NCBI GenBank assembly: GCA_043798715.1
Contig: JAZDOK010000016.1
Span: 1,036 to 65,035, forward strand
DNA: 64,000 nt
Source: a bacterium
Lineage (GTDB): Bacteria; Vulcanimicrobiota; JAZDOK01
Direction: 5' to 3'
In this document: positions 474-55,290 of the stretch, one piece after another
How positions within the stretch are numbered: position 1 is the stretch's first letter
Layout: each line of letters starts with the position of its first letter
Made by a program: the position numbers and the translations under genes
The notes under the pieces: generated by a model
The model's database searches: none
What the model was told of the DNA's origin: nothing
What the model saw: the letters and a program-made list of their open reading frames with translations, nothing else

Positions 474-485
474 GGAGGAATCCAT

Positions 486-1109
486 ATGCCCAAGGTTTCG
501 TTATATAACGTAGAGGGGAAGGCCCTGGAGGAGATGGATCTTACGGACGCGATCTTCGGCGTCAAAGTGAGCCATGGGACTCTTCACCTGGCCCTTGTGC
601 GGCAACTGGCCAATGCCAGAATGGGAACCGCCTGCACCAAGACCCGCGCCGAGGTCAGAGGCGGAGGCAAGAAGCCCTGGAAGCAGAAGGGGACCGGCCG
701 CGCCCGTCACGGCAGTTCCCGCTCGCCTATATGGAAGGGCGGCGGAGTCACCTTCGGCCCCCGGCCCCGTGATTTCAGCTTTTCGCTTCCGCGGAAGATG
801 CGGCGGCTGGCCCTGCGCTCCGCTTTATCGCTCAGAGCCGGCCAGAAGGGCGTGAGTGTTCTGGAAAACCTCTCATTCGAAAAGCCGTCCACGAAGCAGG
901 TTGTAAAGATGCTGGAGAACCTCAACATCACCGGCAAGGTGCTCATTATTGCAAAGAACATGGAGGAGAATTTCGTCAAGTCCGTCCGGAATCTGCCGGA
1001 GGCCAAGATGATTTCGGTTCACAACCTCAATGTGCACGACCTTCTGAACTACGAGCACCTGCTGATAGAGAAGGAAGCGCTGGCTTCCATGGAGGAGGTT
1101 CTGGTATGA
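486..1109 (+). CDS. rplD: 50S ribosomal protein L4 (uL4)
   Basis: 207-aa ORF containing [19 protein letters not shown], characteristic of uL4. It follows rplC. Confidence 0.96.
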
Positions 1110-1408
1110 ACAAGACAGCAAGAGACGTCATCAAGCGGCCCCTCATTACGGAAAAAAGCATGGAGGGGACGACTATGAACAAGTACACCTTCGAGGTGGC
1201 CACCTGGGCCAACAAGATCGAGATTCGCAAGGCCGTTGAAACGATCTTCAAAGTGAAGGTGCTCAAAGTAAACACGCTCAACGTCCCCGGCAAGTTGAAG
1301 CGCTACGGGAAATTCTCGGGGTACACTTCGGACTGGAAGAAGGCCGTTGTGACCCTGAAGGACGGGGATAAGATAGAACTGGGCGGAGTGGAAATCTTCG
1401 CACAGTAA
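1106..1408 (+). CDS. rplW: 50S ribosomal protein L23 (uL23)
   Basis: 100-aa ORF (..[29 protein letters not shown]) with a 4-nt overlap on rplD. Position in the operon is conserved. Confidence 0.95.
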
Positions 1409-1430
1409 TCGCCTGAAAGGAGTCTTTGTC

Positions 1431-2255
1431 ATGCCGACCAAGAATTTTAAACCGACATCGCCCGGCAGGCGGTTCATGACCGTGGCCGATTTTGAAGAAA
1501 TAACCTGCAGCAGACCAGAGGAGACCCTGCTTCAGCCTCTGAAGAAAAATGCGGGGCGCAACGCCCAGGGACGGGTGACGGTTCGCCATCAGGGCGGCGG
1601 TTCCAAGAGGATGTACCGGAAGATTGACTGGAAAAGGGAAAAGGACGCCGTCCCGGCAAAGGTCTCTTCCATCGAGTACGATCCCAACAGGACGGCGTAC
1701 ATCGCCCTCCTTAACTATGCGGATGGGGAAAAACGGTATATCCTGGCTCCGCTGGGACTCAAGGTAGGGGACAAGGTGGTCGCGGGGGAAGAAGTTGACG
1801 TCAAACCCGGAAACGCGATGCCCATCAAAAGCATCCCCCTCGGGACCCTCATCCACAATATAGAGCTTAAGCCCGGCCGGGGTGCCCAGATGGTGCGCTC
1901 AGCCGGTGCCTCCGCCCAGCTCATGGCCAAGGAGGGTGATTACGCCCACGTGCGTCTTCCTTCCGGCGAGGTTCGCCTGGTCAGCATCAGATGCCGGGCT
2001 ACCATTGGGCAGGTGGGCAACGTGGAGCACGAGAACATAACCATCGGCAAGGCCGGGAGATCCCGCTGGATGGGCAAGCGTCCTTCGGTCAGGGGTGTGG
2101 CCATGAATCCCTGCGATCACCCGCACGGAGGCGGCGAGGCCCGCTCGACACCGGGGCGCCCCTCCACGACTCCCTGGGGTAAGCCGGCTATCGGCTTGAA
2201 GACCAGGAAGCGCAAGCCGGCGGACCGCATGATCGTAAAGAGAAGAAGCAAGTAG
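1431..2255 (+). CDS. rplB: 50S ribosomal protein L2 (uL2)
   Basis: 274-aa ORF with the GRN..GR.T.RH.GGG.K and [12 protein letters not shown]-like ([13 protein letters not shown]) motifs. Confidence 0.97.
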
Positions 2256-2270
2256 AAGGGGGGGGGTTCT

Positions 2271-2555
2271 TTGTCCAGGTCAGTTAAAAAAGGTCCGTAT
2301 GTGGATGAGAACTTGATGAAAAAAATCAGCAAGATGAATCAGACCGGACAGAAACAGGTCGTTAAGACGTGGGCCAGGGCCTGCACCGTCGTTCCGCAGA
2401 TGGTGGGTCATACCATCGCCATTCACGACGGGAGAAAGCACGTGCCCATCTATATTTCGGAAGAGATGGTGGGTCACAAGATGGGTGAATTCGCTCCCAC
2501 CAGGATTTTCAGAGGACACGGCTCTCATGCGGAGAAAACGACCGCCCTCAAGTAG
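2271..2555 (+). CDS. rpsS: 30S ribosomal protein S19 (uS19)
   Basis: TTG start. [40 protein letters not shown] is canonical uS19. Confidence 0.96.
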
Positions 2556-2576
2556 AGAGCACTCAGGAGGAGAACA

Positions 2577-2951
2577 ATGACCAAGACTAGCGGAGGAGAA
2601 AAAAAGGAAGCCAGGGCGATAGCCAGGTTCGTTAAAATGGCTCCCAGGAAGCTGAGGCTGGTGATGGAAGTGATCCGGGGCAAAGCCGTGCACGACGCCA
2701 TCAATATTCTCAGGTTCACCCCCAAGCGGGCGGCCAGGACCATAGAGAAAGTCTTGAAATCGGCTTTGGCCAATGCTGAGAATAATTTAAGAATGAGTGG
2801 CGACGATCTCTTCGTCTCAGCCGGCTTTGTTGACGGTGGGCCTACCATGAAGCGCTTTACGCCGCGTGCAATGGGACGGGCCAGCAAGATTCACAAGAGG
2901 TCGAGCCACATCACCATCGTCGTTAGGGAGAGAGAGGAGGCGAGTCGCTAA
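2577..2951 (+). CDS. rplV: 50S ribosomal protein L22 (uL22)
   Basis: [32 protein letters not shown] matches uL22. Operon position fits. Confidence 0.95.
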
Positions 2952-3632
2952 GTGGGCCAGAAAATACATCCAATCGGTTTAAGGGTCGGCATTATTCGGG
3001 GATGGGATAGTCGCTGGTTTCAGAAGAAACACTACGTGGAATGGCTCCACGAAGATATCATGATCCGCAACTTCATCCGCAAGACGATGAGAAACGCCGG
3101 TTTATCGAGAATCGAGATCGAGCGTGCCGATAAAGTAAATGTCACCATCCAGACAGCCAAGCCGGGAATAGTCATCGGCAAGCGCGGCGCCGGTATTGAG
3201 GATCTTCGCAAGAAGCTCATCGCAATGACCGGAAAAGAGGTCAAGGTAAACGTTCAGGAGGTCAAGCAGCCGGAGCTGGACGCCAGGCTGGTCGCCGAGA
3301 ACATCGTCGAGCAGCTCGAAAAACGGGTGGCCTTCCGACGGGCCATGAAACAGGCCCTGGGCCGCTCCATGCGTGCCGGCGCCAAGGGCATCAAAATCCA
3401 GTGCGGAGGACGTCTGGGCGGCGCTGAAATAGCCCGTTCGGAGCGCACCTTCGAGGGTAAAGTCCCCCTTCACACCCTGCGGGCGGACATAGATTACGCA
3501 ATGGTGGAAGCCTACACTACCTATGGACGCATCGGAGTGAAGGTCTGGATTTACCGTGGCGACATTCTGCCTGCCGGCAAGAAAGAGGCGGCAGAGGCGG
3601 CATCCGACTCCAGAGAGAGGAGGTTTGACTGA
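2952..3632 (+). CDS. rpsC: 30S ribosomal protein S3 (uS3)
   Basis: GTG start. [14 protein letters not shown]...W.S.W and the KH-domain GIVIGKRG motif are present. Confidence 0.97.
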
Positions 3633-17181: not shown

Positions 17182-19491
17182 TTGAATACTTTAAACCTGC
17201 GCACCAGATACCGCCCCTTGCGTATTGGATGGTGTGTCCGTGACGGCAATATAGATGATTTTCGGAAAGTGTTGCGACTTACCCATACGCTGTGGGGTGG
17301 GCGATATAATCCCGTGATCCCGATAAATGATACAAAATTTGCTGAACAGTTGGTGAATCTTTTCCGCGTTGATGCTCTTTATCCGGCCTCAGATGACAAG
17401 GCACTCGATGATTTCATCAAACGGTTCTCTTACCTTCCCTGGCCGGTTTTACATAAAGAGTTATTTGTTGATGGCCCTTTTGGCAAAATGACGACGCTTC
17501 TTGATGTTACTCATCCTATCCTCCATCAAAAAGACGATATCCATAAATTAACGCATCCTTATTATGAATTTCACTTGCTTGATTGGGATAATTCAGATCC
17601 GTTAGGCGATGTTTTATTGGCCACTATTGGAAGTTATCCAACAAAAGAGGAGTGTGGTATTGACTATATCGATATGATAGCAAAACATTTAGCAAGAAGA
17701 AAAGTTCCCTTAGATATTAAATTACCGCTCCCGAACAATATTTATAAGATTTGTACTCCTTCAGCACTTACTGCTTATGATTTAGCTGAAGATTTTATCG
17801 AACCTTTTGATTGGAATAACAAAGGATTATATGTGGGAGATGCTCAGGACTTTTTTGATCTCGTTAACTTTTGGAATCTTAGAGCGTGTAATATTTATTT
17901 GCTTTTCTACGATCCACGACATGCTGAACGGCTAAACATTTTAAAGGATGCTTATTTAAATGAATTACATCGTGATTCTCCTGTATGGAGGCAGCAGATT
18001 GATGTTTTTACAAAATCAGATAATATTGATATATCAATATTAGGTTCGAATATCAGAAGAACTATTGCGTCAATGAACGATTGGAAATTATTAAAAACTA
18101 AACCACCCCTGATGCGTTTCAAAGAACAGTCCGCGCTTGGCTCTATAGCAGATGAAGACGGTACGCTTTCTGTTTGTTTTCAGCTTCCTGAGAAGCCTAT
18201 TTTCGATGAGTATCATCTTCAGAGACAACATTTAGTTGTCTCTGTAAATCCGCTAATTGACATTGCAAAATTTAGTAATTCTACTGCTATATTTCGCCCC
18301 CCTTTTATTCCTGAGTTAAACGAGTACTATGGGCGAGAGTGTTATTTCCATTGGAACGCAGCAAGGGCCGAAGTAGACGGCCTAGGAATTATCATTGATA
18401 TTACTCAAACAGATCTAACTTTACGCGCACTAGAAAATCGCAGTCTGATTGCAAAAATATTCGAAGTTTTTGGAATGAAGGCTGAGCCCAGCCAGCCTGG
18501 GCTTATCAGCGCTCGGCTCATCCAACAAATGGGCGGGCTTCAAGGTTGCCGTGTATTTAAAATTACAGGCGTCAGAGAACTTATTGAGAAATATAGTCCA
18601 TCGAAGTATTTTACAAGGAGTGGCGCTAAACAAATTATTGGAAAGCTAAATTTTCCAGAATTTGAAAATCTCTACATCGAAAAGAGACGGGATGGGAAAT
18701 TAAAACTCGAAGATGTTTTAAAATATTTAGCCAACAAAGGTGTATTCAGAGTCGGTCTAAATTTCCAATGCCCGAATTGCGAATTGAAATTCTGGTTGCA
18801 TTTAGATGATATTAAGACAATAGCAGAATGTGAGTATTGCGGGAATAAATTTAACGCGACCTCTCAACTCCGGGATCAATACTGGGCATACCGTCGTTCT
18901 GGGCTTTTCGGTCGAGACGACCATCAGGAAGGGGGCATTCCTGTTGCCCTTACCCTCCAGCAGCTCGATGCCACCTTGGAGCCGGAGTTAATGCTTTACA
19001 CCACAGGGATGAATATTAATCCCATAACCGCTCCTGTAAATACCTGCGAGACAGACTTAGTCCTTATTACGCAGACCCACAATGGACGTGTTCAGTTGGC
19101 AATCGGGGAATGTAAAACGCGTGGTGAGAAGATCGCGGAGAAAGCGGAGAAAGATGTAGAAAACCTGAAAAAAGTGGCAGATGCATTCCCTCCAGAAAGG
19201 TTCGAAAGCTTTATCGTTTTTTCAAAAACACATCCTTTTACAGAAAACGAAATTAAACGCTGTCAAGCCGCTCAGGTTTCAGGCCGACATCGAGTAATTA
19301 TCTTGTCTGATCGAGAACTTGAGCCGAATTTTATTTACGAACGCACAGTTTTAGAATTCGATATAAGAGAAAGCGTGATATCTCTGAAAGACTTAGCAAA
19401 AAATACACACGATATTTACTTTGAGCCAAAACCTAGAGCCCCAAAATCTAACAAAGAAAATGAACCGCACGATGCGAATGATCGTCAATAG
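17182..19491 (+). CDS. large unknown protein: unrecognised N-terminal ~530 aa + CxxC..CxxC zinc ribbon + PD-(D/E)xK-like nuclease core (candidate defence gene 1)
   Basis: 769-aa AT-rich ORF with a TTG start 6 nt after AGGAG. The zinc ribbon CPNCELKF..x..CEYCGNKF is at nt 18769-18840. ETDLVLI...GRVQLAIGECKTRGE at nt 19048-19116 fits the D-x(n)-E-x-K restriction-endonuclease-fold signature. Confidence 0.8.
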   Translation: MNTLNLRTRYRPLRIGWCVRDGNIDDFRKVLRLTHTLWGGRYNPVIPINDTKFAEQLVNLFRVDALYPASDDKALDDFIKRFSYLPWPVLHKELFVDGPFGKMTTLLDVTHPILHQKDDIHKLTHPYYEFHLLDWDNSDPLGDVLLATIGSYPTKEECGIDYIDMIAKHLARRKVPLDIKLPLPNNIYKICTPSALTAYDLAEDFIEPFDWNNKGLYVGDAQDFFDLVNFWNLRACNIYLLFYDPRHAERLNILKDAYLNELHRDSPVWRQQIDVFTKSDNIDISILGSNIRRTIASMNDWKLLKTKPPLMRFKEQSALGSIADEDGTLSVCFQLPEKPIFDEYHLQRQHLVVSVNPLIDIAKFSNSTAIFRPPFIPELNEYYGRECYFHWNAARAEVDGLGIIIDITQTDLTLRALENRSLIAKIFEVFGMKAEPSQPGLISARLIQQMGGLQGCRVFKITGVRELIEKYSPSKYFTRSGAKQIIGKLNFPEFENLYIEKRRDGKLKLEDVLKYLANKGVFRVGLNFQCPNCELKFWLHLDDIKTIAECEYCGNKFNATSQLRDQYWAYRRSGLFGRDDHQEGGIPVALTLQQLDATLEPELMLYTTGMNINPITAPVNTCETDLVLITQTHNGRVQLAIGECKTRGEKIAEKAEKDVENLKKVADAFPPERFESFIVFSKTHPFTENEIKRCQAAQVSGRHRVIILSDRELEPNFIYERTVLEFDIRESVISLKDLAKNTHDIYFEPKPRAPKSNKENEPHDANDRQ

Positions 19492-36811: not shown

Positions 36812-38854
36812 ATGTCCGATTTTCAGCTCCAGGCCCCCTACCCGCCCCGGGGGGATCAGCCGCAGGCCGTCGAGGCCGTCGCGCGCGGCCTGCGCGAGGG
36901 CCTCCCGGAGCAGACTATCCTGGGGGTGACCGGAAGCGGCAAGACCTTCGTCATGGCCAACGTCATAGCCGCTCTTTCCCGCCCGGCCCTGGTGATTTCT
37001 CACAACAAGACCCTGGCGGCGCAACTGGCCGGCGAGTTCCGGGAGTTTTTTCCCCATAACGCGGTCGAGTATTTCGTGAGCTACTACGACTACTATCAGC
37101 CGGAGGCCTATATTCCACAGTCCGACACCTACATCGAGAAGGATTCCGACATCAACCAGGATATTGACCGCCTGCGCCACGCGGCCACCCAGGCGGTTCT
37201 CGAACGGCGGGACGCCATCGTGGTGGCCAGTGTCTCCTGCATCTACGGCCTGGGTTCCCCCGAAGACTACATGAAGACGATCCTGGTCTTCCGCCTTGGG
37301 GATGAGGTCGAGCGAGCTTCCATCCTGAAGCGCCTGGTGGAGATGCAGTTCACCAGGAGCACGGCCACCCTGGCCCGGGGCCAGTTCCGCCTCAGGGGGG
37401 ATGTCCTTGAGATAGCTCCCGCGGACGAGGAGAACGTGGTGCGGATGGATTTTTTCGGGGACGCCGTAGAGAAAATTTCAGTTTACGACCCGGTATCCGG
37501 ACATATCCTGGCCCACAAGGAGCGGCTGGTGGTCTATCCGGCCAAGCATTTCATCACTCCGCTTCCCAAGCTCAAAGCGGCCCTGACCTCAATCGAACAG
37601 GAGCTTGAGGACCGCCTCCGGTACTTCCGGGACCATGAAATGCTCCTCGAGGCCCAGCGAATCGAACAGCGCACCCGCTATGACATGGAGATGCTCCGGG
37701 AAATAGGCTACTGCTCGGGCATCGAGAATTACTCCCGCCACTTAACCGGGAGGGCTCCCGGCCAGCCGCCGGCCACGCTCATTGACTACTTCCCGGAGGA
37801 TTTCATCGTCTTCATTGACGAATCACACGTGACCATTCCCCAGCTCCACGCCATGCGGCACGGGGACCGTTCACGAAAGGACAGCCTGATTAATTATGGC
37901 TTCAGACTCCCCTCGGCCTACGACAATCGCCCGCTCTCCTTTGAGGAATTCCGGGAGAGGATCGGCCAGGTGGTCTATGTTTCGGCCACTCCCGGGCCCT
38001 ACGAACTCAAGGTCAGCCGCCAGGTGGCGGAACTCATCGTCCGTCCCACCGGGATCGTGGACCCCGAAATCGTCATCCGTCCGGTGGCCGGGGAGGTGGA
38101 GGACCTCCTGGCCGAAATAAGGAAGCGGGCGGCCTCATCCGAGCGGGTGCTGGTGACGACCCTCACCAAGAAGATGGCCGAAGATCTCTCCGAGTACCTG
38201 GCGCAGGCAGGGATCAAGGTGCGCTACCTCCACTCCGATATTGACACGCTGGATCGAATCCAGATCCTCCGGGATCTGCGCCTGGGCACATTTGATGTGC
38301 TGGTGGGGATCAACCTGCTACGGGAGGGCCTGGACCTGCCGGAGGTCTCACTGGTGGCCATCCTGGACGCCGACAAGGAAGGATTCCTGCGCTCGGAGAC
38401 CTCGCTCATTCAGACCATCGGGAGGGCCGCCCGGAACATCAGCGGCACGGTCATCCTCTACGCCGATAAAATGACCGGCTCCATCAACCGTGCGGTGGAT
38501 GAGACGATGCGCCGCCGCCGAATCCAGCTTGAATATAACAAGACCTACGGGATCATCCCCGAGACGATTCGAAAATCGGTGCGCGATATTCTCGAATCTC
38601 TGGCGGTCTCCGAGCCGGAGACGGCCTACAAGGTGAAAGAGAAAGAATCTCTCTCCGTCAGATCGCTTGAAAAACTCATCCGGGAACTCGATCGGGCCAT
38701 GAAGGAGGCGGCCAAAAAGCTGGAGTTCGAAAAGGCCGCGGCCCTTCGGGACGAGATGTACGAGGCCCGGAAAAGCCTCTCCGAAAAGCTCAAGAACGCC
38801 CCCATCGGCCCGGTGGCCCTCTCCCTGCCCGGCCGAAGGCGCCGCCCAATTTGA
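36812..38854 (+). CDS. uvrB: excinuclease ABC subunit B
   Basis: F.L.APY.P.GDQP.A...L..G.......[17 protein letters not shown], helicase motifs, and a C-terminal UVR domain ([13 protein letters not shown]). Confidence 0.97.
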
Positions 38855-38925
38855 CCTTTTTATTTAAAAGCCATTATCCCCCATTTGGTCTACTACTCTT
38901 TATGCCACTTAGGCCATACGAGGGA

Positions 38926-38954
38926 TTAAGAATTCCCCGGTTTTCTGGTACAAT
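38926..38954 (+). promoter_or_regulatory. candidate sigma-70 promoter for the pseudopilin cluster
   Basis: TTAAGA, a 17-nt spacer, then TACAAT with an extended-10 TG (TGGTACAAT). Confidence 0.3.
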
Positions 38955-38974
38955 AGTACGAGAGGGGGTGTTAA

Positions 38975-39346
38975 TTGCTATTCGCGCGAAAAAAAGGGAT
39001 GTCCATGATCGAGATTCTCTTTGCTATCGCCATCCTTTCCGTAGGGGTACTGGCCGTAATGGGGCTTTTTCCCGCTATATTCAAACTGAATACCAGTTCC
39101 AGTCTCACGGTCAGCGCTCTCTTCCTGGCCCAGGAAAAGATGGACGAGATTCTCGCGACGGGCAAGAGCATCTCGACCACGGAGGTAGCGGAGGAGATGC
39201 CCCAGCTTCCGCAGGGCCAGCGATTCCGGGTCGGCTCGGACGATCCCAACGGCGACCCGGATATCCAGATGATCACCGTGCGGGTCACCTGGAGGGAAAA
39301 AAGCCGTAGCAGGAGTGTTGTTTTGAAAAGTCTAATATCACCGTAG
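38975..39346 (+). CDS. prepilin-type N-terminal cleavage/methylation domain protein (minor pseudopilin)
   Basis: Leader ..KKG|MSMIEILFAIAILSVGVLAV is a class III signal peptide. Confidence 0.8.
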   Translation: MLFARKKGMSMIEILFAIAILSVGVLAVMGLFPAIFKLNTSSSLTVSALFLAQEKMDEILATGKSISTTEVAEEMPQLPQGQRFRVGSDDPNGDPDIQMITVRVTWREKSRSRSVVLKSLISP

Positions 39347-39364
39347 CGGAATGGAGAAAGGATC

Positions 39365-39991
39365 ATGAAGAAAAGGAATGGCGGTTTCACCCTGGCCGAG
39401 CTGATGGTGGTCTCCGTCCTTTTCCTGCTTGTCTCTTCCTCGATCATGGGGGTCCTGATCCTGGCTCTGAGCTGCTGGGAGAAGGCGGACGCCAGCGTGG
39501 CGGCCCAGCAGAACTCCAGGCTGGCCGTCTCTATCATCACGGCGGATTTGAAACAGGCGGTTGCCAACCAGGATCCCGGGCATGGGACGAACCCGCCCAC
39601 CGGATACCGGGCCATCTCCCCTGCCGTACCCCCCACCGGGGTCCTCTATCCGAACATGAACCAGACTTCAAGGGCCTATATCATCTTCAATGAGCCTTAT
39701 TTCAGCGCCTATGATCCCTCCGGAGCCTCCTGGGACCCGCAGGATCCCTCGAACTACCAGAAGATAAAATATTACGTTTCAAGCGGAATTATTCTTCGCC
39801 AGGTCACGAAATATGACTCCAGCAGCCAGATCGCCTCGACCAGGGAAGACCCGATTGCGGCGGTCAACGATGGCAGTATTACTCTTACGGTAGATTATCT
39901 TGGTCCAAATTTATTTAATGTTAAAGTGAGTGCCGTCGAAAAATCCAATACCTCCATATGCAGTTCAAAGGTCTATATTCCGGCCAGATGA
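39365..39991 (+). CDS. prepilin-type N-terminal cleavage/methylation domain protein
   Basis: MKKRNGG|FTLAELMVVSVLFLLV is a canonical G/FTLxE prepilin signal. Confidence 0.85.
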   Translation: MKKRNGGFTLAELMVVSVLFLLVSSSIMGVLILALSCWEKADASVAAQQNSRLAVSIITADLKQAVANQDPGHGTNPPTGYRAISPAVPPTGVLYPNMNQTSRAYIIFNEPYFSAYDPSGASWDPQDPSNYQKIKYYVSSGIILRQVTKYDSSSQIASTREDPIAAVNDGSITLTVDYLGPNLFNVKVSAVEKSNTSICSSKVYIPAR

Positions 39992-40017
39992 TTTGGGACC
40001 CGCCCGGAAGGAAGTGA

Positions 40018-41355
40018 TTGGCGATGAGTAATAAGTTTAAAAAGAAGCCGGGAGGAATCGCCCTTGTTCTGACGCTTCTCTCTCTCCTTATTATTTCCGT
40101 TCTGGGATTGGGGCTGGTGACGATCATGCTGGGGGAGTCGAGCGCCACCTCGCTTCAGGTAAGGGAATCCAAGTCCTATTACCTGGCCTGCGCCGGCGTT
40201 GCCAGGGCCACGGCTGAGCTTCGCCGGAATTCCACCTGGGGGACTTCTTCCCCGGTAACCGCTTCAATGGGAGAGGGGCAGTATGAGGTCACGGTCTGGG
40301 CCTCTCCAAACAACTCGACGAGTTCCTACAAGCTCTGGAAAGTGACTACACGCGGGCGGGCTTATGATTCCTCGCGGGAGATCGTCGCCTGGGTCGAGCA
40401 GGAATCGTTCGCCAAGTACGCCATGTTTACCGACAGCGAGAAGTCGAGCGACGGCACGACCATCTGGTATCTGACAAGAGACAGCATGACCGGACCTGTC
40501 CATACCAACGGCTATTACAGCATCAGCGGAATTCCCCGCTTCTCCGACAGAGTGACGGCCGCCAATACCTCCGATTCATATTATAATTCCACCTACCGGA
40601 GGTACTCCCAGGGGGGACATTATTATTATGATCCGGCTTATTTTTACCGTTACTCCACCGAACATGGAAACGAGAATTACAATTCGAACAAGCCGATGGC
40701 CCTGGAGGGCAGCGCCTCATTCTCTTTTCAGGGCGGGCAGCCGAGAATCACGCTTCCCACGGACACGGGGTTAATCGCCAGCCGGGCCAATACCACCTTC
40801 AACGACGATGTCGCCATCACTTTTAATGATGACGGAACGATGACGGTACATAGCGGAGCGTCCAATACGACCCTCTCCACCCAGACGACCACGATTCAGG
40901 TCAACGGCGATGCGGATGTCCATGGAACCCTGGCGGGGCGGACCACGATCGGTTGCTCGGGAGACATTAACATCGTCGGTGATATTGTCTATAATGACAA
41001 GACCCAGGATGTCCTGGGCCTCGTCGCCCAGGGGACCATATGGATAAAGACGAGCAGCAATGTCAAGCGGGATCTGGAAATTGACGCCGTCTTAATGGCG
41101 CTTAACAATTCCATGACGGTCGAAAACTACGATCGCGGGGTAGCACGCGGCACCCTTAGGATCTTCGGCGGAGTCATTCAGCGCTACCGCGGCGCCGTGG
41201 GCACTTTTAACACCAACTCCAACCAGGTGGCTTCGGGGTACAGCAAAGAGTATGTCTACGATCAGAAGCTTCTCAACAAGCCGCCCTTGAATTTCCCCGT
41301 CACCGGGGAGATCAAAATCAAGGCCTGGCAGGACAGGGGGGCGTTGGCGGAGTGA
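40018..41355 (+). CDS. PilX-N-like pilus/pseudopilus-associated protein
   Basis: The N-terminal GGIALVLTLLSLLIISVLGLGLV anchor is typical of PilX-type minor pilins. GPVHTNG...I.G.P.F...V motif is present. Large Ser/Thr/Asn-rich beta domain. Confidence 0.7.
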   Translation: MAMSNKFKKKPGGIALVLTLLSLLIISVLGLGLVTIMLGESSATSLQVRESKSYYLACAGVARATAELRRNSTWGTSSPVTASMGEGQYEVTVWASPNNSTSSYKLWKVTTRGRAYDSSREIVAWVEQESFAKYAMFTDSEKSSDGTTIWYLTRDSMTGPVHTNGYYSISGIPRFSDRVTAANTSDSYYNSTYRRYSQGGHYYYDPAYFYRYSTEHGNENYNSNKPMALEGSASFSFQGGQPRITLPTDTGLIASRANTTFNDDVAITFNDDGTMTVHSGASNTTLSTQTTTIQVNGDADVHGTLAGRTTIGCSGDINIVGDIVYNDKTQDVLGLVAQGTIWIKTSSNVKRDLEIDAVLMALNNSMTVENYDRGVARGTLRIFGGVIQRYRGAVGTFNTNSNQVASGYSKEYVYDQKLLNKPPLNFPVTGEIKIKAWQDRGALAE

Positions 41356-41888
41356 GCCAGGATAATCTTCTGCCCGATGGAAGAAAAGTTCTGGTGGAGA
41401 CCTCTCCCGAATTTAAGGCCTGGATTCGCGCGCAGGAGTGTAAGTCCGCCGTGCGGAAGGAAGAGGAGAGCCGGAAAGAGTTCCTGCCGCCGCCATTGGA
41501 GGAAAGCGTTCCTCTTTCCGGGCCGGGGAGCGATCGCGGGATCAGGGGCTATAACAGATTTGTTAACGCAATAATCATGCTCGTACTGGCGGGCTGCGTA
41601 CTTTTGTTCGGCTTTATCTCCTCTTATTACAACACCAGCATAGAAAAAAGTTCATCTCAGAAATTCAGGCATCCATTATCCCTAAGGGTATACGACAGCA
41701 GAACCAGGGATTTATCTTTGCTTCATCGCCATCTGAAACCCCAGGGGAGCCCTCCAATTGAAGACCATAGCTATTACATTCCCGAATGGCCCAAGCCGCT
41801 TCCGCTTTCTCCAGTACCTTTTGAGATGCCGGTGCCGCCGGATGAATCTCCGGACAAGGGAATGCCGGCGGGCCGCCTGAACATATAA
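41352..41888 (+). CDS. hypothetical single-pass membrane protein (pilus cluster)
   Basis: 178-aa ORF with a 4-nt overlap on the upstream gene. It has one TM segment (AIIMLVLAGCVLLFGFI) and a Pro-rich tail. Confidence 0.55.
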   Translation: MSQDNLLPDGRKVLVETSPEFKAWIRAQECKSAVRKEEESRKEFLPPPLEESVPLSGPGSDRGIRGYNRFVNAIIMLVLAGCVLLFGFISSYYNTSIEKSSSQKFRHPLSLRVYDSRTRDLSLLHRHLKPQGSPPIEDHSYYIPEWPKPLPLSPVPFEMPVPPDESPDKGMPAGRLNI

Positions 41889-41963
41889 GAACGTAAGAGG
41901 GATTTGCCATTCAATATTGAAAACAGAGGGAAGATATTTATCATAACAAGGGGGGTGAACTGT

Positions 41964-42329
41964 TTGAAAAAAATCGTATTGGCGCTTCTCCTGTCCGCAA
42001 TTTTTTTCGCCGGCTTCATGTCGTGCGTCCAGGCGCAGAAACCGGCCGCTCCCGGCCTGACTCTTCTTTATTTCTACAGCGATGGCTGAGGGGCCTGTGT
42101 CCAGATGAAGCCGGATCTCCTTCAGTTTGAAGGGGAGTGCGCGGCCAGGGTCAAAGTGGTGAAAATTGATGTCACCAAGCCCAGGGAACTCGATTGCAAA
42201 AATTACATCGATCTGTATAAATCCAGATATATTCCCCATCTGGTGCTCATCAACCAGGATCGGAAGATCCTCAAGACTCACACGGGGAGCATGACTAAAA
42301 AAGAACTCATTGATTTTGTAGGGGAATAG
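41964..42329 (+). CDS. secreted thioredoxin-fold protein with in-frame TGA at the first redox position (putative UxxC selenoprotein)
   Basis: ORFs 41904-42089 and 42105-42329 are in the same frame, separated only by TGA 42087-42089. Read-through gives ..LLYFYSDG-U-GACVQMKP..., the Trx WCGPC position, with a cis-Pro loop YIPHLVLI downstream. TTG 41964 follows AAGGGGGG and starts a signal peptide. Confidence 0.65.
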
Positions 42330-42359
42330 GGGACTCAGAGTTCGCCTGGTTTGCCATCA

Positions 42360-42386
42360 GGGCCTGCTTTACGCAGGCCCTTTTGT
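42360..42386 (+). terminator. rho-independent terminator
   Basis: GGGCCTGC-TTTAC-GCAGGCCC followed by TTTTGTT, 30 nt after the thioredoxin-like stop. Confidence 0.7.
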
Positions 42387-42444
42387 TGCAGGATTTAAGG
42401 GGGGCGGAGCGGAATACTCCCGGAAATATCAAGGAGGAGACGGG

Positions 42445-42600
42445 ATGGAAGATCATGACATGATGCTTGACCTGTACGATCTGCTGATGGATAGGACGGT
42501 CATCGCCGATTCCGAGGCGATGGCCACCGCCATGAATTTCTGGGGTTCCCTGTCCTGTGATATCACCATGTCGGATGAGGCGGGAAGGTTCCCGGCCTGA
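42445..42600 (+). CDS. small hypothetical protein (51 aa)
   Basis: Hand-found ORF MEDHDMMLDLYDLLMDRTVIADSEAMATAMNFWGSLSCDITMSDEAGRFPA, with a strong RBS AAGGAGGAG 6 nt upstream. Confidence 0.4.
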   Translation: MEDHDMMLDLYDLLMDRTVIADSEAMATAMNFWGSLSCDITMSDEAGRFPA

Positions 42601-42671: not shown

Positions 42672-43808
42672 ATGGCAAAGTACAAGATCGCGTGGCTCCC
42701 CGGAGATGGCATCGGAGTAGAGGTGTTAGAGGCGGCGAAGATCGTCCTCGACGAAACCTCGCTTGACGCCGAATACATCCACGGCGACATCGGCTGGGAG
42801 TTCTGGTGCAAAGAGGGGGACGCCTTTCCCCAGCGGACGATTGATCTCCTCAAGAATGTGAACGCCGCCATGTTCGGCGCCATCACCTCCAAACCGGTCA
42901 AGAGCGCCGAGGCCGAGCTCATCCCCGAGCTCAAGGGCCAGGGCCTGATCTATCGCTCGCCCATCGTCCGGATGCGCCAGCTTTTCGATTTGTATATCTG
43001 CCTGCGCCCCTGTAAGGCCTACCCGGGCAGCCCCATCAATTTCAAGGAAGGGCTCGACCTGGTGATCTTCAGAGAGAACACAGAGGGTCTCTACTCGGGG
43101 GTGGAGTTCGCGCCGGTGCCGGAAGAGCTTTCGCAGACACTCGCCAGGCTCTCCAAACCCTTCGCGCCCTTCCAGAAACTTGAGGGCGGGGACTATGCCA
43201 TTACCTGCAAGATAAACACCCGCAAGGGTTCTGAGCGGATCATCCGCTCCGCATTTGAGTTCACCAGAAAGTTCGGACGCAAAAAGGTCACGGTCATTCA
43301 CAAGGCCAACGTCGTTAGGGCCACTGAGGGGCTCTTCCTGGAGACAGCCAAGGAGGTGGCGAAGGATTATCCTGAAATCAGGATGGACGATGCCAATATC
43401 GATGCCATCTGCATGTGGCTTCTCAAGAACCCGTTCAATTATGACGTCCTGGTGGCGACCAACCTCTTCGGCGACATCATCTCAGACCTCTGCGCCCAGA
43501 TGGTTGGAGGACTCGGTTTCGGCTGTTCGGGTAATATCGGAGACAAGCTTGCCGTCTTCGAGCCGACCCACGGCTCGGCTCCAAAATACGCCGGCCAGCA
43601 CAAGGTGAACCCGATTGCCACCATCCTTGCGGCCAAGATGATGCTCGAGTGGCTGGGCGAGACGGAAAAGGCCCGTAGGGTCGAGGGGGCGGTGGCGGCC
43701 GTGATCAAGGAGGGCAAAGTACGGACCTATGACATGGGCGGCGCAGCCGGCACTCTGGACATGGCCCGCGCGGTCGCCGAACAGATAGCCCAACCAGTCA
43801 AGAATTGA
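42672..43808 (+). CDS. isocitrate/isopropylmalate dehydrogenase-family oxidative decarboxylase
   Basis: I.WLPGDGIG.EV......VL, ..R.LFDLY..LRP......, .FRENTEGLYSG.E, and NLFGDI.SD..A...GGLG... matches the family. The substrate cannot be told from sequence by eye. Confidence 0.88.
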   Translation: MAKYKIAWLPGDGIGVEVLEAAKIVLDETSLDAEYIHGDIGWEFWCKEGDAFPQRTIDLLKNVNAAMFGAITSKPVKSAEAELIPELKGQGLIYRSPIVRMRQLFDLYICLRPCKAYPGSPINFKEGLDLVIFRENTEGLYSGVEFAPVPEELSQTLARLSKPFAPFQKLEGGDYAITCKINTRKGSERIIRSAFEFTRKFGRKKVTVIHKANVVRATEGLFLETAKEVAKDYPEIRMDDANIDAICMWLLKNPFNYDVLVATNLFGDIISDLCAQMVGGLGFGCSGNIGDKLAVFEPTHGSAPKYAGQHKVNPIATILAAKMMLEWLGETEKARRVEGAVAAVIKEGKVRTYDMGGAAGTLDMARAVAEQIAQPVKN

Positions 43809-45191: not shown

Positions 45192-47237
45192 ATGAAAAAA
45201 TCATCAAACCATTTAGTCCGGGTTGTTTTTTTATTTCTGCTGATTGCTTTTACGGCGATTCAGGCGGAGGCCGCCTCATTCATTCCGCAGAGCACGGTAA
45301 AGGCGGTCAGTACCGCTCTTGTTAAAAAACACGGCGAGGTCCAGGCCGCGAGGATAGAGCGCTGCGTCCCACTCACGGCCTCCTTCTGGCGGGCGGAAGA
45401 CGGCGACGCAAAAGCCTTTGAGAATTTCTGTATGAATAATTTCACCGCCGATCCCTCGCTCTTGGAGGCGGTCTTCGGCCGCTACGAGAAGAACTTTGAA
45501 AGCATCGAGGGCCATTACCTGGCCATACACCGCGCCGTGATGTGGCCCATAGACGTGGACGAGGGGGAAATTCTGCCGGTGGACCGCCTTTTCGCCGATT
45601 ATTCTCCACATGCGCATATGGACGACGATTTTTTCAGGACGAAAATAGCCTTCATGGCGCTTCTCAATTTCCCGCAGTTCACGCTCGAAGAAAAACTCAG
45701 GCAGAGCGCTACCTGGTCGCGGGATGAGTGGGCCCGGGTCCGGCTGGGCGATATCTTTGCGGCCAGGGTTCCCGCGGCAGTGCGCCAGAGGGTAAACACG
45801 GCCTACCTTGCAGCCGATGACTACATCAACTCCTACAACATATACATGCACTCCCTTCTTGATGCGGAGGGAAGCCGCCCATTTCCCGAAGGTCTCCGCC
45901 TTATCTCCCACTGGGGGCTGCGCGATGAGCTTAAGGCTCTTTATAAAGAGCCAACCGGCCTGCCGAAGCAGAATATGATCGCCTGTGTCATGGAGCGGAT
46001 CATCCGCCAGGAGATTCCCGGCATTACCATCAATAATCCGAAGGTGGACTGGAACCCGGAAAAAAACACTGTCGCCTCAAACGGAAAGTTGATTCCGGCC
46101 GTCCGCGAGCCGGATACCCGCTACCGGCGCCTGCTCGGCGTTTTTCGGGCCGAGAGGAAACTGGATCCCTACTATCCCCAATTCCCCTCCATGATCGCCC
46201 GAAAGTTCAACCGGGAGCGGGAGATTCCGGAGAAACAGATGGAGCAGCTCCTGGTCTCCGTCCTCTCCTCGCCCACTCTGAAGGAAGTCGGGAAACTCAT
46301 AGAAAAGCGCCTGGGGCGGCCTCTTCAGCCTTTCGATATCTGGTATACCGGCTTTGACACAGGAAAGGCCTTGGATCAGAATGATTTGGACAAGATGGTC
46401 CGCGACCGGTATCCGAACGTCCAGGCCTTCCAGAAGGACCTGCCGAACATACTTATGAAGCTTGGTTTTTCCGGGGAGACGGCCGAATTTTTGAGCGGTA
46501 AAATTCAGGTGGACCCGGCCCGGGGCGCCGGCCATGCGATGGGAGCCGAGATGCGGGGGGACAAGGCTCACCTTCGGACCCGCTTCGGAAAAAACGGGAT
46601 GGACTACCAGGGCTTCAACGTGGCCTGCCACGAGCTGGGGCATTGCGTGGAGCAGACCTTTTCACTCTACCGGGTGGACCACACCCTTCTGCAGGGAGTT
46701 CCTAACACAGCTTTTACCGAGGCCTTCGCCTTCATATTCCAGTCGAAGGACATGGCGGTTCTGGGTCTGCCCCAGGAAAAAGACGCCGTGAAGGAACAAC
46801 TTGCGGTTCTCAACAACCTCTGGCTCACCTACGAGATCTCAGGCGTGGGCCTCCTGGACATGAGGATCTGGCGCTGGATGTATGCCCACCCCGGAGCGAC
46901 GCCTAAGGAGCTGAAAGAGGCGGTCCTCTCTCTGGCCAAGGGGGTCTGGAACACCTATTTTGCGCCGGTCATCGGAGTTAAGGACTCGGTGCTTCTGGCC
47001 GTGTATTCTCACATAATAGACGCCGGCCTGTACACACCGGATTACCCGCTGGGGCACATCATTCAGTTTCAGCTTGAAAGCTACCTGGCCGATAAAAACC
47101 TGGCCTCCGAGATGGAGCGCATGTGCGTTCAGGGGATGCTCACCCCCAATGCCTGGATGAAAGGGGCGGTCGGCTACGGCATCTCCTCCGAACCGCTCCT
47201 TAAGGCGGCCGAAGAGGCCCTCAAGGAGCTGAGGTAG
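45192..47237 (+). CDS. secreted putative zinc metallopeptidase (HExxH ... E gluzincin-like)
   Basis: Signal peptide (LIAFTAIQAEA) and HELGH at ..VACHELGHCVEQ.. with TEAFA about 25-30 aa downstream. Confidence 0.65.
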   Translation: MKKSSNHLVRVVFLFLLIAFTAIQAEAASFIPQSTVKAVSTALVKKHGEVQAARIERCVPLTASFWRAEDGDAKAFENFCMNNFTADPSLLEAVFGRYEKNFESIEGHYLAIHRAVMWPIDVDEGEILPVDRLFADYSPHAHMDDDFFRTKIAFMALLNFPQFTLEEKLRQSATWSRDEWARVRLGDIFAARVPAAVRQRVNTAYLAADDYINSYNIYMHSLLDAEGSRPFPEGLRLISHWGLRDELKALYKEPTGLPKQNMIACVMERIIRQEIPGITINNPKVDWNPEKNTVASNGKLIPAVREPDTRYRRLLGVFRAERKLDPYYPQFPSMIARKFNREREIPEKQMEQLLVSVLSSPTLKEVGKLIEKRLGRPLQPFDIWYTGFDTGKALDQNDLDKMVRDRYPNVQAFQKDLPNILMKLGFSGETAEFLSGKIQVDPARGAGHAMGAEMRGDKAHLRTRFGKNGMDYQGFNVACHELGHCVEQTFSLYRVDHTLLQGVPNTAFTEAFAFIFQSKDMAVLGLPQEKDAVKEQLAVLNNLWLTYEISGVGLLDMRIWRWMYAHPGATPKELKEAVLSLAKGVWNTYFAPVIGVKDSVLLAVYSHIIDAGLYTPDYPLGHIIQFQLESYLADKNLASEMERMCVQGMLTPNAWMKGAVGYGISSEPLLKAAEEALKELR

Positions 47238-50384: not shown

Positions 50385-50837
50385 GATGACAGGGAAGTGG
50401 GCCTGTAAGCCGAGTTCTGTTCCCGTCCGGATTTCTCCGGAAGGACGGCGATCATCTATCTGGGATCTGCATTACTGCACACCTCGTGCGACCACACCCG
50501 AGAGACTGCCGGCGGGCAGCCGGCGCAGAATTCTTAATTATCAACCAAAAATCCTGCATTCTCTCCTATTTGGTCTTGCTCCGGATGGGGTTTGCCTAGC
50601 CGGCAGGTCGCCCTGCCGCTGGTGAGCTCTTACCTCACCGTTGCACCCTTGCTCATCGTCCGGGAAATCCCGGCCTGGTGAGCGGTCTTCATTTCTGTGG
50701 CACTTTCCCGGGGTCACCCCCGCTGGGCGTTACCCAGCACCCCGCCCTGTGGAGCTCGGACTTTCCTCAGGCGCCTCCATTCATAGTTTGCCTATCAAAC
50801 TTCCGCACCCGCGACCACCCGTCCCACTTCCCTGTCA
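50385..50837 (-). ncRNA. rnpB: RNase P RNA, bacterial type A
   Basis: The minus strand contains GAGGAAAGTCCGAGCTCCACAGGGC..GGGTAACGCCC, GGGAAAGTGCCACAGAAA, GGTAAGAGCTCACC, CCGGAGCAAGACCAAATAGG and ACAGAACTCGGCTTACAG. The P1 helix pairs GACAGGGAAGTGGG with CCCACTTCCCTGTC. Ends are accurate to about +/-5 nt. Confidence 0.9.
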
Positions 50838-52047: not shown

Positions 52048-55000
52048 ATGAAGAGAACCTGCCTTGGAAATCTCCTGTTCTTCCTCTTTTTCCTGTTTCT
52101 GGCTGCGCCGGTTTTATCCCAGGATGCGGCTCAGGACCAGCCAGTCCCATCGCTTCTGGTCAGGCCGGCCGTGAACGTGAGCCCACTGGGCCCCCTCCAG
52201 TATGAGGGAGGCCTGGACGTGATGCGCTCCTCCCTGCGGACCCTCATGGGACTTTTGACCCCCGATGAGGAGAAAAAATTCATGGCGCAGTGGGCTCCCC
52301 AGTATGACTTTCCCAATGCCGAGGCCCGGGCCTATTATGAAAAACTGAACCCTCTCCTGGAAGAGCTTATAAGTCTCCGGCAGGCGATGCTTGAGGCCGC
52401 CCGGGAACACGATGCCGCTCTCCGCGAGATGGAGCTGGCCTGGCGCCTGGATGATGATGAGGGATTCCGGGAGGCGGAAGGCATAGTCCTCTCCCAGAAG
52501 GGCATCATCGTTCCCGGAGAAAAACGTGCCAGGGAGCTTTTGGCGGCCATCGAAAAGCTGGGCGATCCCCCGGATGCCTCAGAGGCCAGGAAGAATGCCC
52601 GGCGCCGCCATACGCAGGCCCGCGCAACCGCCGAGAAGGCCTGCGGGGGGGAGCCTGCCGCACCCGGCCGCGAGCTCCACGAGGGTTGGTGGATCCTGAC
52701 AGACAAGAAAGTCAGCAAGGATCAATTTGTAACATACACGGGAACGGGCGTATCCGGCACCTGCGTAGCGGACCATCCGACGGACGGCTGGACTGCGTCC
52801 TTCACTCATACCTGGTCGGCCCCGCCTTCCCGCATGCATGCGGGCTACTACTATACCCCGAATCCCCAGGCCTATACGGGGGGCAAGACGGAGAACATCG
52901 GCGAGACCGTCAAGCTCTCGGGCACGGTCCGACTCGTCAGCTGGAAGTGGAGCAGAGAAGGCCCGGGGGATGGAAGGATTGACAAGAGTGTTCCCCCAAG
53001 GGCGGACGCGGAGACACATTTCTGGGTGTCTCTTGAGGACAGTCCCACCTTAGGAATTGCCAAGTGCAAGGACGCCCGGGTGGAAACCAAGGGGAAGTCC
53101 GAGGATGAGGCGACCTGTTCCTTCGTGGCTCCTTTCGCCCCATACGGAGATTCAAAATACAAGCTCCAGATTTGGGTTCCTACATACGGGAGCGGGGGGC
53201 GTGGGTATTCCTGCGGGGTGACTTACGTCTATTCATGGGACCCCACCGGAAACACGGTGAAGCCCCTCGAAGACAAAGAGCAACCGCCAAATCCCGCCGG
53301 TGAAACCACAGCCGCCACATCTGTACCTCAGCCGGTGGATCCCGCCGAAGAAGCGCGGAAGATAAAAGAGGAGGACGAGAAGGGCAAGGCCGACCGCATA
53401 GCCGAGTCCGAGGCCAACATCAACAGAGCCAGGAAAGTCCTCTCGAATCTCGAGAATGACTTGGCCGCCGAGAGGGCCGGGAAGAATGATGCGAAGCGGA
53501 TCGGCGATATCGAGTTTGCTATCCTGGGGCAGAAGTCCGATATCCACGACGAGGAGAACCGCATCGCCTCAGTAAAAAGCGGCGAAATAGTCTCCACCCG
53601 CGGGCCTTTCGAGGAATACGCCAGCGCTCTCCTGATTGAGAGCTGCAGGAAGGAAGTCCAGGACTTTTCCCGCATCCAGCAGGAGCAGGCGGCGGCCCAG
53701 CGCCTTATCGCCATCCTGGAAAAATACTCACCGGAGGAGGCGGAAACGGCCCGGAAATTCGCGGAACGGGAGCTGGGGCCGGAACTCTACGCCTCCCGCG
53801 ACCTGGCGAAGGCGAAGAAAGCCGTGGAACAGGTGCACGCCCTGGTGGAAAACAAGCTCAAGACCGAGCAGGCCTACCGGGAGAGCCGGCAGGAATATAC
53901 CGCGCGGCACGCCGCCGTCATGGACGGTTACGTTAAAGCGGCTGAATCCATCAAGACCAACTCCGGCCGGGCCCTCATGGTCCTCTCTCTCGGCGCTGAG
54001 ATTCTCCCGGGCATGGCCATTCAGATGGCCTACGAAGCGGGGGTGGGCTTTGCCGAGGGGGCCACGCCTGCCCAGGTCGCCACCAGGGCAGGGACCAATC
54101 TTCTCATAGTGGGGGGAATAATAGGCGTGACCAAACTCGGAGGATATGTCCTGGGGAAGATGCTCGCGCCCGCCGCCGGTAAAGTAGCCGCCGAAGCCGC
54201 CGAACAGGGCGCCCCGAAAGTCGGGGAAGTATTTCAGGGAGCCAAATTCGCCGAGGAACTGGGGAACAACCAGGCGCTGGTCAAGCAGGCCGTGGAAAAG
54301 CTGGCCGGGAAGCGCCAGGCCCTGGTTGCCGCCCGGGCGGCCAAGGAAAGCCCCGAGGTCATAGCAAAACTTGAAAAGGAAGCGGACGAGCTCGTCTCCT
54401 CAATAGAGGGCAGCACCCTGGCCAAGAGAGCTCTTAAGACCGAGGTCAAGGCCGCCGAAAAGGCCGCCGAGGGGGCTGAGGCCGGCTCGGCCGAGGCTGC
54501 CAAGCTCGAACAGCTCCAGAAGACTGAAACCGCATACCTCGAACACCTCTCCGAGCTCCAGGCCAAAACGCGTTCCCGGATGGTCGAAGATCTCCAGAAA
54601 CAGGGCTACAACGTTGAAGAGGGCTGGTTCACCACCTTTCGAAACCAGTCGAGCAAGGGAATAAACAACGACCTCGACCTGGGCCTCCTGGCCGAGCTTG
54701 AGGGAAAACTCATGAAAGAGGGAAAGCCCGTCACCCTCCAGGAGTTCATGAAGGACGCCCAGAAGGCCTACGACGGGGCTTTTAAAAGCGTAACCGGCCG
54801 CTCGGCCAAGCTGGCCGATCAGAACGTGACCACCAGCGCCTTCAGCGAGGCTTACCCGCTCGAATGGCTCTCGAAGAACGAAAACCTTATCGTCGCCGCC
54901 GACCCGGCCTCCTGCGCCAAGGCCGGCCAGGCCATCGCAAACAAGGTGGAGAACGCCCTCGCCGGCCCCGATCCCTTTTTCGTCAACCTCCAGAAGGCCG

Positions 55001-55290
55001 GAGCCAGCCTGGCCAAGGACATACGGACCAAGCTCCTGGTGCGCCTGAAGAAAACCGTGCCCCAGGCGTCTGGTTCCACCCCCAACGCCCTGACGAAGGA
55101 AGCCATTGAGCAGGCCGGCCGGCACTACGAGGAAGTGGCCAAAGTCCTGGACGACTTTGCCGCCAACAAGATTGACCCGCTCACGGCCAGCAGGAAGGTG
55201 CGGGAGCTCACCGGCGGCTGCTCCCTCTCAGAGATAGCCCAAGAAGCCGGTGGGCTTCTAAAAAAACTGGGCGAGGCCCAGGCAAAATAG
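52048..55290 (+). CDS. large secreted protein with a beta-rich module, long coiled-coil regions and two central hydrophobic segments; unknown function
   Basis: 1080-aa ORF. It has a signal peptide (LFFLFFLFLAAPVLSQ), Ala/Glu/Lys-rich heptad-like stretches, and hydrophobic segments at ALMVLSLGAEILPGMAIQMA.. and ..LLIVGGIIGVTKLGGYVLG. Confidence 0.75.
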   Translation: MKRTCLGNLLFFLFFLFLAAPVLSQDAAQDQPVPSLLVRPAVNVSPLGPLQYEGGLDVMRSSLRTLMGLLTPDEEKKFMAQWAPQYDFPNAEARAYYEKLNPLLEELISLRQAMLEAAREHDAALREMELAWRLDDDEGFREAEGIVLSQKGIIVPGEKRARELLAAIEKLGDPPDASEARKNARRRHTQARATAEKACGGEPAAPGRELHEGWWILTDKKVSKDQFVTYTGTGVSGTCVADHPTDGWTASFTHTWSAPPSRMHAGYYYTPNPQAYTGGKTENIGETVKLSGTVRLVSWKWSREGPGDGRIDKSVPPRADAETHFWVSLEDSPTLGIAKCKDARVETKGKSEDEATCSFVAPFAPYGDSKYKLQIWVPTYGSGGRGYSCGVTYVYSWDPTGNTVKPLEDKEQPPNPAGETTAATSVPQPVDPAEEARKIKEEDEKGKADRIAESEANINRARKVLSNLENDLAAERAGKNDAKRIGDIEFAILGQKSDIHDEENRIASVKSGEIVSTRGPFEEYASALLIESCRKEVQDFSRIQQEQAAAQRLIAILEKYSPEEAETARKFAERELGPELYASRDLAKAKKAVEQVHALVENKLKTEQAYRESRQEYTARHAAVMDGYVKAAESIKTNSGRALMVLSLGAEILPGMAIQMAYEAGVGFAEGATPAQVATRAGTNLLIVGGIIGVTKLGGYVLGKMLAPAAGKVAAEAAEQGAPKVGEVFQGAKFAEELGNNQALVKQAVEKLAGKRQALVAARAAKESPEVIAKLEKEADELVSSIEGSTLAKRALKTEVKAAEKAAEGAEAGSAEAAKLEQLQKTETAYLEHLSELQAKTRSRMVEDLQKQGYNVEEGWFTTFRNQSSKGINNDLDLGLLAELEGKLMKEGKPVTLQEFMKDAQKAYDGAFKSVTGRSAKLADQNVTTSAFSEAYPLEWLSKNENLIVAADPASCAKAGQAIANKVENALAGPDPFFVNLQKAGASLAKDIRTKLLVRLKKTVPQASGSTPNALTKEAIEQAGRHYEEVAKVLDDFAANKIDPLTASRKVRELTGGCSLSEIAQEAGGLLKKLGEAQAK

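Follow-up and report, generated by a model that had tools for sequence, protein, structure and literature searches.

We conclude, with a probability of roughly 0.88, that positions 41964-42329 of the window (the whole 64,000-nucleotide stretch of DNA that was analysed) hold one gene, which would encode an exported, thioredoxin-fold selenoprotein with a UxxC active site, use the hairpin at 42116-42136 as its SECIS element and act as an extracytoplasmic thiol-disulfide oxidoreductase. The kind of gene is already known, as thioredoxin-fold UxxC selenoproteins have been inventoried (PMC13188914), and the gene described here is a new, unannotated member. The initial annotation had proposed a UxxC selenoprotein because of an in-frame TGA, and that overall reading is supported by conservation of the TGA, alignment of the active site and a covarying hairpin.

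The frame can be followed directly in the sequence. It runs from a TTG at 41964 through the in-frame TGA at 42087-42089 to a TAG at 42327-42329, confirming the earlier observation of two same-frame ORFs split only by this TGA. The read-through product is LKKIVLALLLSAIFFAGFMSCVQAQKPAAPGLTLLYFYSDG-TGA-GACVQMKPDLLQFEGE...YIPHLVLI...ELIDFVGE, followed by the stop. With selenocysteine (Sec) at the TGA and a slash at the predicted cleavage site, the 121-aa protein becomes LKKIVLALLLSAIFFAGFMSCVQA/QKPAAPGLTLLYFYSDG-U-GACVQMKPDLLQFEGE...SRYIPHLVLINQDRKILKTHTGSMTKKELIDFVGE. An earlier TTG lies at 41904, but the placement of the Shine-Dalgarno-like AAGGGGGGT favours TTG 41964 as the start (Table 1).

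Residues 4-18 of the putative signal peptide (15 residues) have an average Kyte-Doolittle hydropathy of 2.73. The VQA before the predicted cleavage point is retained in close orthologues, and hydrophobic N-termini occur in the other family members whose N-terminus is visible. The KK, the hydrophobic core and the VQA followed by Q, together with these hydrophobic N-termini of relatives, therefore point to export of the protein, with putative cleavage between VQA and QK. The promoter scan of the region gave two matches in total (1.1 expected) and the terminator scan one (1.8 expected). Together, the promoter-like site, ribosome-binding site and terminator-like hairpin suggest a monocistronic unit, all three being pattern matches only.

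Table 1. Features of the probable thioredoxin-like selenoprotein gene and its flanks, in window coordinates.
Feature	Position	Strand	Basis
Sigma-70-like promoter candidate, TTGAAA-16-TATCAT	41917..41944	+	Consensus scan, 10/12 matches; pattern only
Shine-Dalgarno-like AAGGGGGGT	41949..41957	+	Read from sequence; ends 6 nt before TTG, G-run 7 nt before
Full CDS, putative thioredoxin-like selenoprotein	41964..42329	+	121 codons + TAG; Sec = codon 42
Predicted signal peptide, 24 aa (KK n-region, hydrophobic core, predicted cleavage VQA/QK)	41964..42035	+	Hydropathy, conservation
Probable Sec codon UGA, attacking first-Cys position of CxxC	42087..42089	+	Thioredoxin alignment; TGA in 14/14 relatives
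Resolving Cys, TGT, residue 45 of UxxC	42096..42098	+	Invariant column in alignment A4
Candidate bSECIS apical hairpin, 9-bp stem + GUU loop	42116..42136	+	Fold, published rules, covariation
Conserved Pro, residue 91, aligned with thioredoxin cis-Pro	42234..42236	+	Invariant in A4; solved thioredoxins
Intrinsic-terminator-like hairpin + T-run, 9 bp (7 G-C)	42359..42391	+	Pattern match only; 30 nt past TAG, well placed

When Cys is put in place of Sec, the protein matches the Pfam Thioredoxin model (PF00085) with 41.5 bits against a gathering cut-off of 23.5 (E=1.4e-10), and the match covers residues 31-119, i.e., it extends across the TGA. The Thioredoxin_2 model (PF13098) gives a weaker match, 29.3 bits against a cut-off of 27. 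A profile of the whole family aligns with solved thioredoxins (2i4a, 7xao and others; E ~3e-10), and in that alignment the TGA column is the attacking first Cys of WCGPC, just as the initial annotation had claimed. The active-site motif, U-G-A-C (U42 and C45), and the IP of YIPHL align with CGPC and the cis-Pro IP of 2i4a and 7xao, so its further claims, of a resolving Cys two residues on and a preserved cis-Pro loop, also hold. Comparison with Cys-containing homologues places a Cys opposite the TGA in these solved thioredoxins and in three distant relatives from a metagenome scan that carry DGCxxC (L102 LLVYFYSDGCAPC, L103 LLYFYGDGCEHC and L104 LLYFYFDGCKFC). No Cys-form orthologue was found within the close family or above ~30% identity.

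With 2i4a, 7xao and E. coli TrxA the protein shares the fold, the active-site register, a Met and a Pro after CxxC and the cis-Pro loop. It differs from them in having Sec, predicted export, DG-U instead of W-C, and Ala instead of Pro. Unlike a classical thioredoxin, it has no N-terminal beta1-alpha1 (the Pfam match begins at profile position 19), and it reaches only 34.5 bits against the cut-off of 96.8 for the TrxA equivalog TIGR01068. By these profile comparisons, the protein is of thioredoxin fold without being an orthologue of TrxA.

Protein databases hold the family in truncated form. Of 5.8 billion protein clusters searched through a word index, only four matched, each of 74-75 aa. When the 79-aa stretch downstream of the TGA was compared exhaustively by phmmer with 1.84 billion representatives, six proteins of 57-78 aa matched; five of them start at the Met just past the TGA and one (P0007) at a later Met. 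Neither search matched a full-length or Sec-annotated copy. Since the fragments start at the same place, gene callers evidently cut the family identically everywhere, and the expectation that they would split or truncate this gene proved correct, as the database copies are all C-terminal fragments.

The DNA behind the protein-search matches, plus four sequences from the metagenome scan, gave 14 other family members, which are 31-84% identical to the window protein. In all 14, the aligned column is TGA and x-x-Cys comes next, although the surrounding residues vary (with the codon written out: DG-TGA-GAC, DG-TGA-PSC, NG-TGA-PSC, DG-TGA-GGC, DG-TGA-GSC, DG-TGA-AGC and PT-TGA-GWC). Upstream of the TGA, pS exceeded pN in all ten pairs of close orthologues (e.g., pS/pN of 0.31/0.08, 0.39/0.10 and 0.80/0.36), and downstream of it pS exceeded pN as well in the close orthologues compared. 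On this substitution pattern, the frame upstream of the TGA is under purifying selection in close orthologues.

These data decide against an alternative in which the TGA is a true stop and the locus is either a broken thioredoxin gene (a pseudogene or an assembly error) or a 41-aa leader followed by a 74-aa protein starting at ATG 42105. Gene callers annotate every database copy in this way, and there is indeed an ATG 15 nt past the TGA. That ATG, however, is absent from two relatives (L015 and L098), which nevertheless retain the xxC between the TGA and the position of the missing Met. A 74-aa fragment would also be without strand beta-1 and the active site, yet the Pfam match spans the TGA. 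Above all, 14 independent relatives, the most distant only 31% identical, share the TGA and have an intact frame on either side of it, and a second lesion occurs in only one of them. The conservation of the TGA, together with in-register conservation upstream of it in diverged orthologues, excludes the sequencing error or recent pseudogene that the initial annotation had named among refuting outcomes. We therefore regard a true stop as close to refuted, and it is the least probable of the readings considered.

The relative with the second lesion is L099, a 2.1-kb metagenome contig with an in-frame TAG at 1691-1693, 35 codons past the Sec codon, in a column that is Glu or Ala in other members; the TAG may reflect either pseudogene status or a sequencing error. 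Two-domain variants exist in L098 (3548-4270), L014 (2590-3237) and L008 (3-533), where an extra domain of ~110 aa lies between the signal peptide and the Sec-thioredoxin domain. In L098 this domain has a weak Cu_amine_oxidN1 match (E=5.8e-5). The family profile detected zero members among GTDB species representatives, and among public sequencing runs only one had related sequence, with 6% of sampled words.

A selenoprotein gene of this type should carry a bSECIS hairpin, for which published rules specify a loop of 3-9 nt, a G within the first two loop positions, a stem of 4-16 bp, a UGA-to-loop spacing of 16-37 nt and an MFE of at most -7.5 kcal/mol (PMC13188914). The candidate hairpin (5' arm 42116-42124, loop 42125-42127, 3' arm 42128-42136) falls within every range, with a 3-nt GUU loop (G then U), a 9-bp stem, a spacing of 35 nt and -11.3 kcal/mol; the loop length and spacing lie at the edges of the published ranges. 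It is the same hairpin that the initial annotation had noted at 42117-42137 as a possible SECIS. Folding of the 42087-42150 area, which had been suggested as a check, gave a divided answer: the 29-nt hairpin segment is stable (-11.3 kcal/mol, z=-2.55), but the 64-nt GC-rich context is not unusually so (z=-0.37).

To put these rules in perspective, a scan with a crude implementation of them passed 17 TGA-split ORF pairs in the window, where 159 such pairs were listed, so the hairpin alone is not above chance. Only the thioredoxin-like gene was credible among these pairs, so there is no second selenoprotein gene in the window to corroborate the use of Sec.

Comparative evidence is stronger. Across the 15 sequences (the window and its relatives), the GUU loop is invariant, 89.6% of stem cells can pair (shifting the 3' arm by 1-3 columns lowers this to 38.5-63.7%), and compensatory double changes occur at four of the nine stem pairs. 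None of 500 shuffles matched the observed hairpin values. The arms read CUCCUUCA/UGAAGGGG in the window, CUCUUGUUCA/UGAGCAGGAG in L013 and CUGGCUCG/CGAGUCAG in L014. In L014, the closing pair has changed from A-U to G-C through a CAG-to-CGG change (Gln to Arg) and a synonymous UUU-to-UUC change in a Phe codon. Synonymous divergence in the 17 codons past the TGA is lower than further downstream in nine of ten close-orthologue pairs. Together, the stem covariation and the reduced synonymous change indicate that the peptide PDLLQFEGE is conserved partly on account of the RNA. As measured on these alignments, it is conservation (the TGA in all relatives and the covarying stem), not the hairpin alone, that exceeds chance.

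Some relatives have weaker hairpins. The closest orthologues (L001, L004 and L007) have a C-A mismatch in the stem, and their 29-nt fold of -5.9 kcal/mol is above the -7.5 limit; the corresponding segment of L011 has -6.3 kcal/mol. A longer outer stem proposed by RNAalifold (42092-42100/42139-42146) was rejected, as only 56.7% of its cells pair across the 15 sequences and shuffles were not exceeded. Like the SECIS of E. coli fdhF type, the window hairpin is a stem-loop within the CDS that directly follows the UGA, and its apical loop has a G followed by a U. It differs from that type in its minimal 3-nt loop, in a spacing near the upper limit and in that the conserved bulged U is not seen.

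Elsewhere in the window TGA behaves as an ordinary stop, terminating 25 of the 64 ORFs of at least 100 aa. A global reassignment of TGA is thereby ruled out, and the window uses the standard code, with recoding local to 42087-42089. Pfam searches, run in four batches over the larger ORFs, found no selA, selB or selD in the window, which also has no tRNA genes and hence no selC.

Sec-decoding genes do occur in relatives. In L013, the family member adjoins a tRNA-Sec gene (2481-2573), selA and selB, with divergent transcription (cluster 1-3231), and the L013 SelA has its best named relative in Candidatus Xenobia, which is a class within the Eremiobacterota/Vulcanimicrobiota phylum. A Candidatus Xenobia MAG (L105, 867-5176) has selD followed by selA and selB, and its SelD, a 341-aa AIRS/AIRS_C protein, has an in-frame TGA of its own (motif ACAG-U-ASK). 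A tRNA-Sec gene lies directly upstream of selA in L106 (7900-9437) and L107 (758-2295). The SecY encoded in the window is 69-72% identical to proteins of Vulcanimicrobiota/Candidatus Eremiobacterota MAGs, with a few Armatimonadetes labels among the lower-ranked matches (66-70% identity). On this one protein, the organism is tentatively placed in Eremiobacterota/Vulcanimicrobiota, which is its probable phylum and one in which, as the Xenobia MAG shows, Sec-decoding genes occur. Our literature search found no paper that ties Eremiobacterota, Vulcanimicrobiota, WPS-2 or Xenobia to selenocysteine or selenoproteins.

Read-through of the UGA need not involve Sec: a near-cognate or suppressor tRNA could insert Trp, Cys or Gly, with the hairpin merely stimulating read-through. 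Such a reading gains something from the lack of sel genes in the window and from the fact that Sec insertion is here a prediction from sequence. Yet the site is that of the catalytic nucleophile, which is functional only as Cys or Sec, and a TGY Cys codon, although one mutation away, is used by 0/14 relatives. The hairpin also has SECIS geometry with a G-first loop, one family member (L013) is linked to selC-selA-selB, and elsewhere in the window TGA simply ends ORFs. Insertion of a standard amino acid is for these reasons highly improbable, and the gene very probably decodes the UGA as Sec.

The proposed mechanism is as follows. SelB-GTP carrying Sec-tRNA(Sec) would bind the GUU hairpin on the mRNA being translated and deliver Sec to the UGA, so that the ribosome goes on rather than terminating. 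Guided by its N-terminal signal peptide, the product would next cross the cytoplasmic membrane. On the far side, U42 would attack substrate disulfides through its selenolate and C45 would resolve the mixed selenenylsulfide. The protein would thus act outside the cytoplasm as a thiol-disulfide oxidoreductase, with reductant or isomerase as its most likely role, and a membrane electron donor of the CcdA/DsbD type could recycle it. Sec insertion itself, export, the redox direction and the CcdA/DsbD-type donor are what we infer from these comparisons, and we favour the reducing direction because the best matches are classical reducing thioredoxins.

It is also conceivable that the protein is a selenoprotein with a different job, i.e., a DsbA-like oxidant or a ResA/CcmG-like factor for cytochrome c maturation rather than a general exported reductant. 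Predicted export would suit such a role, as would profile matches to exported thioredoxins of the ResA, StoA, TraF/TrbB and DsbH types. These matches are weak, however, and far under the family cut-offs: those to ResA (22.8 against 170 bits) and StoA (22.2 against 210 bits) are partial. Genes for cytochrome maturation, DsbB or CcdA/DsbD are not found nearby in the window or in relatives, and the closest matches are, as noted, reducing thioredoxins. We consider this alternative function unlikely, though far from negligible, and keep a general exported reductant or isomerase as the preferred role.

Among known prokaryotic selenoproteins, the nearest in kind is the UxxC thioredoxin (PF00085, e.g., WP_010956703.1) listed in PMC13188914. 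The two share a Pfam family, Sec in place of the first Cys and a UGA decoded via a downstream hairpin within the CDS, a likeness to WP_010956703.1 that is drawn from the family listing. The window protein differs in having a signal peptide and in its dipeptide, G-A rather than G-P. The same inventory lists exported thioredoxin-fold UxxC selenoproteins, namely PF13098 thiol:disulfide interchange, DsbA-like, redoxin and TlpA-like proteins (PMC13188914). The window protein resembles these in being a UxxC thioredoxin-fold protein with predicted export, but it is a single minimal domain of ~97 aa. Selenoprotein-specific NCBIfam models gave no match above cut-off, and the only one at E<=1 was TsoB (13.3 against 805 bits).

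Gene neighbourhood is conserved in close relatives only, where the order is uvrB or pilus-like genes, the thioredoxin-like gene, a 51-aa ORF, an Iso_dh gene and a TPR gene. It varies across the wider family and therefore gives no pointer to a redox partner, and no redox-partner genes were found in the window by the Pfam searches of the larger ORFs. The 51-aa ORF (MEDHDMMLDLYDLLMDRTVIADSEAMATAMNFWGS..., 42445-42600, + strand), between the thioredoxin-like gene and Iso_dh, has no Pfam match. Its counterparts in L001, L004 and L007 are 67-84% identical, 30 residues are invariant, and the ORF is probably a genuine small gene. Upstream, uvrB and the thioredoxin-like gene are separated by four ORFs (38851-41888, + strand), one of which encodes a 445-aa DUF4900 protein whose hydrophobic N-terminus is pilin-like. 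This block is present in the window and L004-L006 and absent from L001 and L007, where uvrB adjoins directly; it is an insertion or deletion between close relatives.

The Iso_dh-family dehydrogenase (42672-43808, + strand) is 75-83% identical across MAGs labelled with many phyla (Acidobacteriota, Ignavibacteriota, WOR-3, Elusimicrobia and others), which rules it out as a taxonomic marker. At 80 Iso_dh-anchored loci from many phyla, the thioredoxin-like gene was adjacent in none. An Rfam scan of the window found a bacterial class A RNase P RNA (50390-50830, - strand; full-length match, 276.5 bits) and nothing besides. For three large ORFs on the + strand, at 17182-19491 (769 aa), 45192-47237 (681 aa) and 52048-55290 (1080 aa), Pfam gave no match at E<=1e-5.

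The search found no Cys orthologue above ~30% identity and no member among GTDB representatives, and there is no curated model. The proteins could form a family of exported mini-thioredoxins that is new to description and apparently Sec-obligate, maybe centred on Eremiobacterota/Vulcanimicrobiota (possibly class Xenobia). We offer this as a tentative suggestion, with the odds somewhat against it. Speculatively, many of these organisms live in habitats of typically acidic pH, where the low pKa of Sec could keep a redox site outside the cytoplasm reactive.

A thioredoxin-like selenoprotein leaves the general knowledge of Sec decoding and of thioredoxin chemistry unchanged. What the locus adds is a well-supported selenoprotein family that is now mis-annotated, each database copy being a fragment of 57-78 aa. 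With its conserved UGA and covarying, minimal GUU-loop SECIS, the family can serve as a test or training case for selenoprotein finders, and its most-conserved peptide, PDLLQFEGE, owes that conservation partly to the RNA hairpin encoded there. For the organism, the gene provides indirect evidence for Sec decoding in an Eremiobacterota-like lineage.
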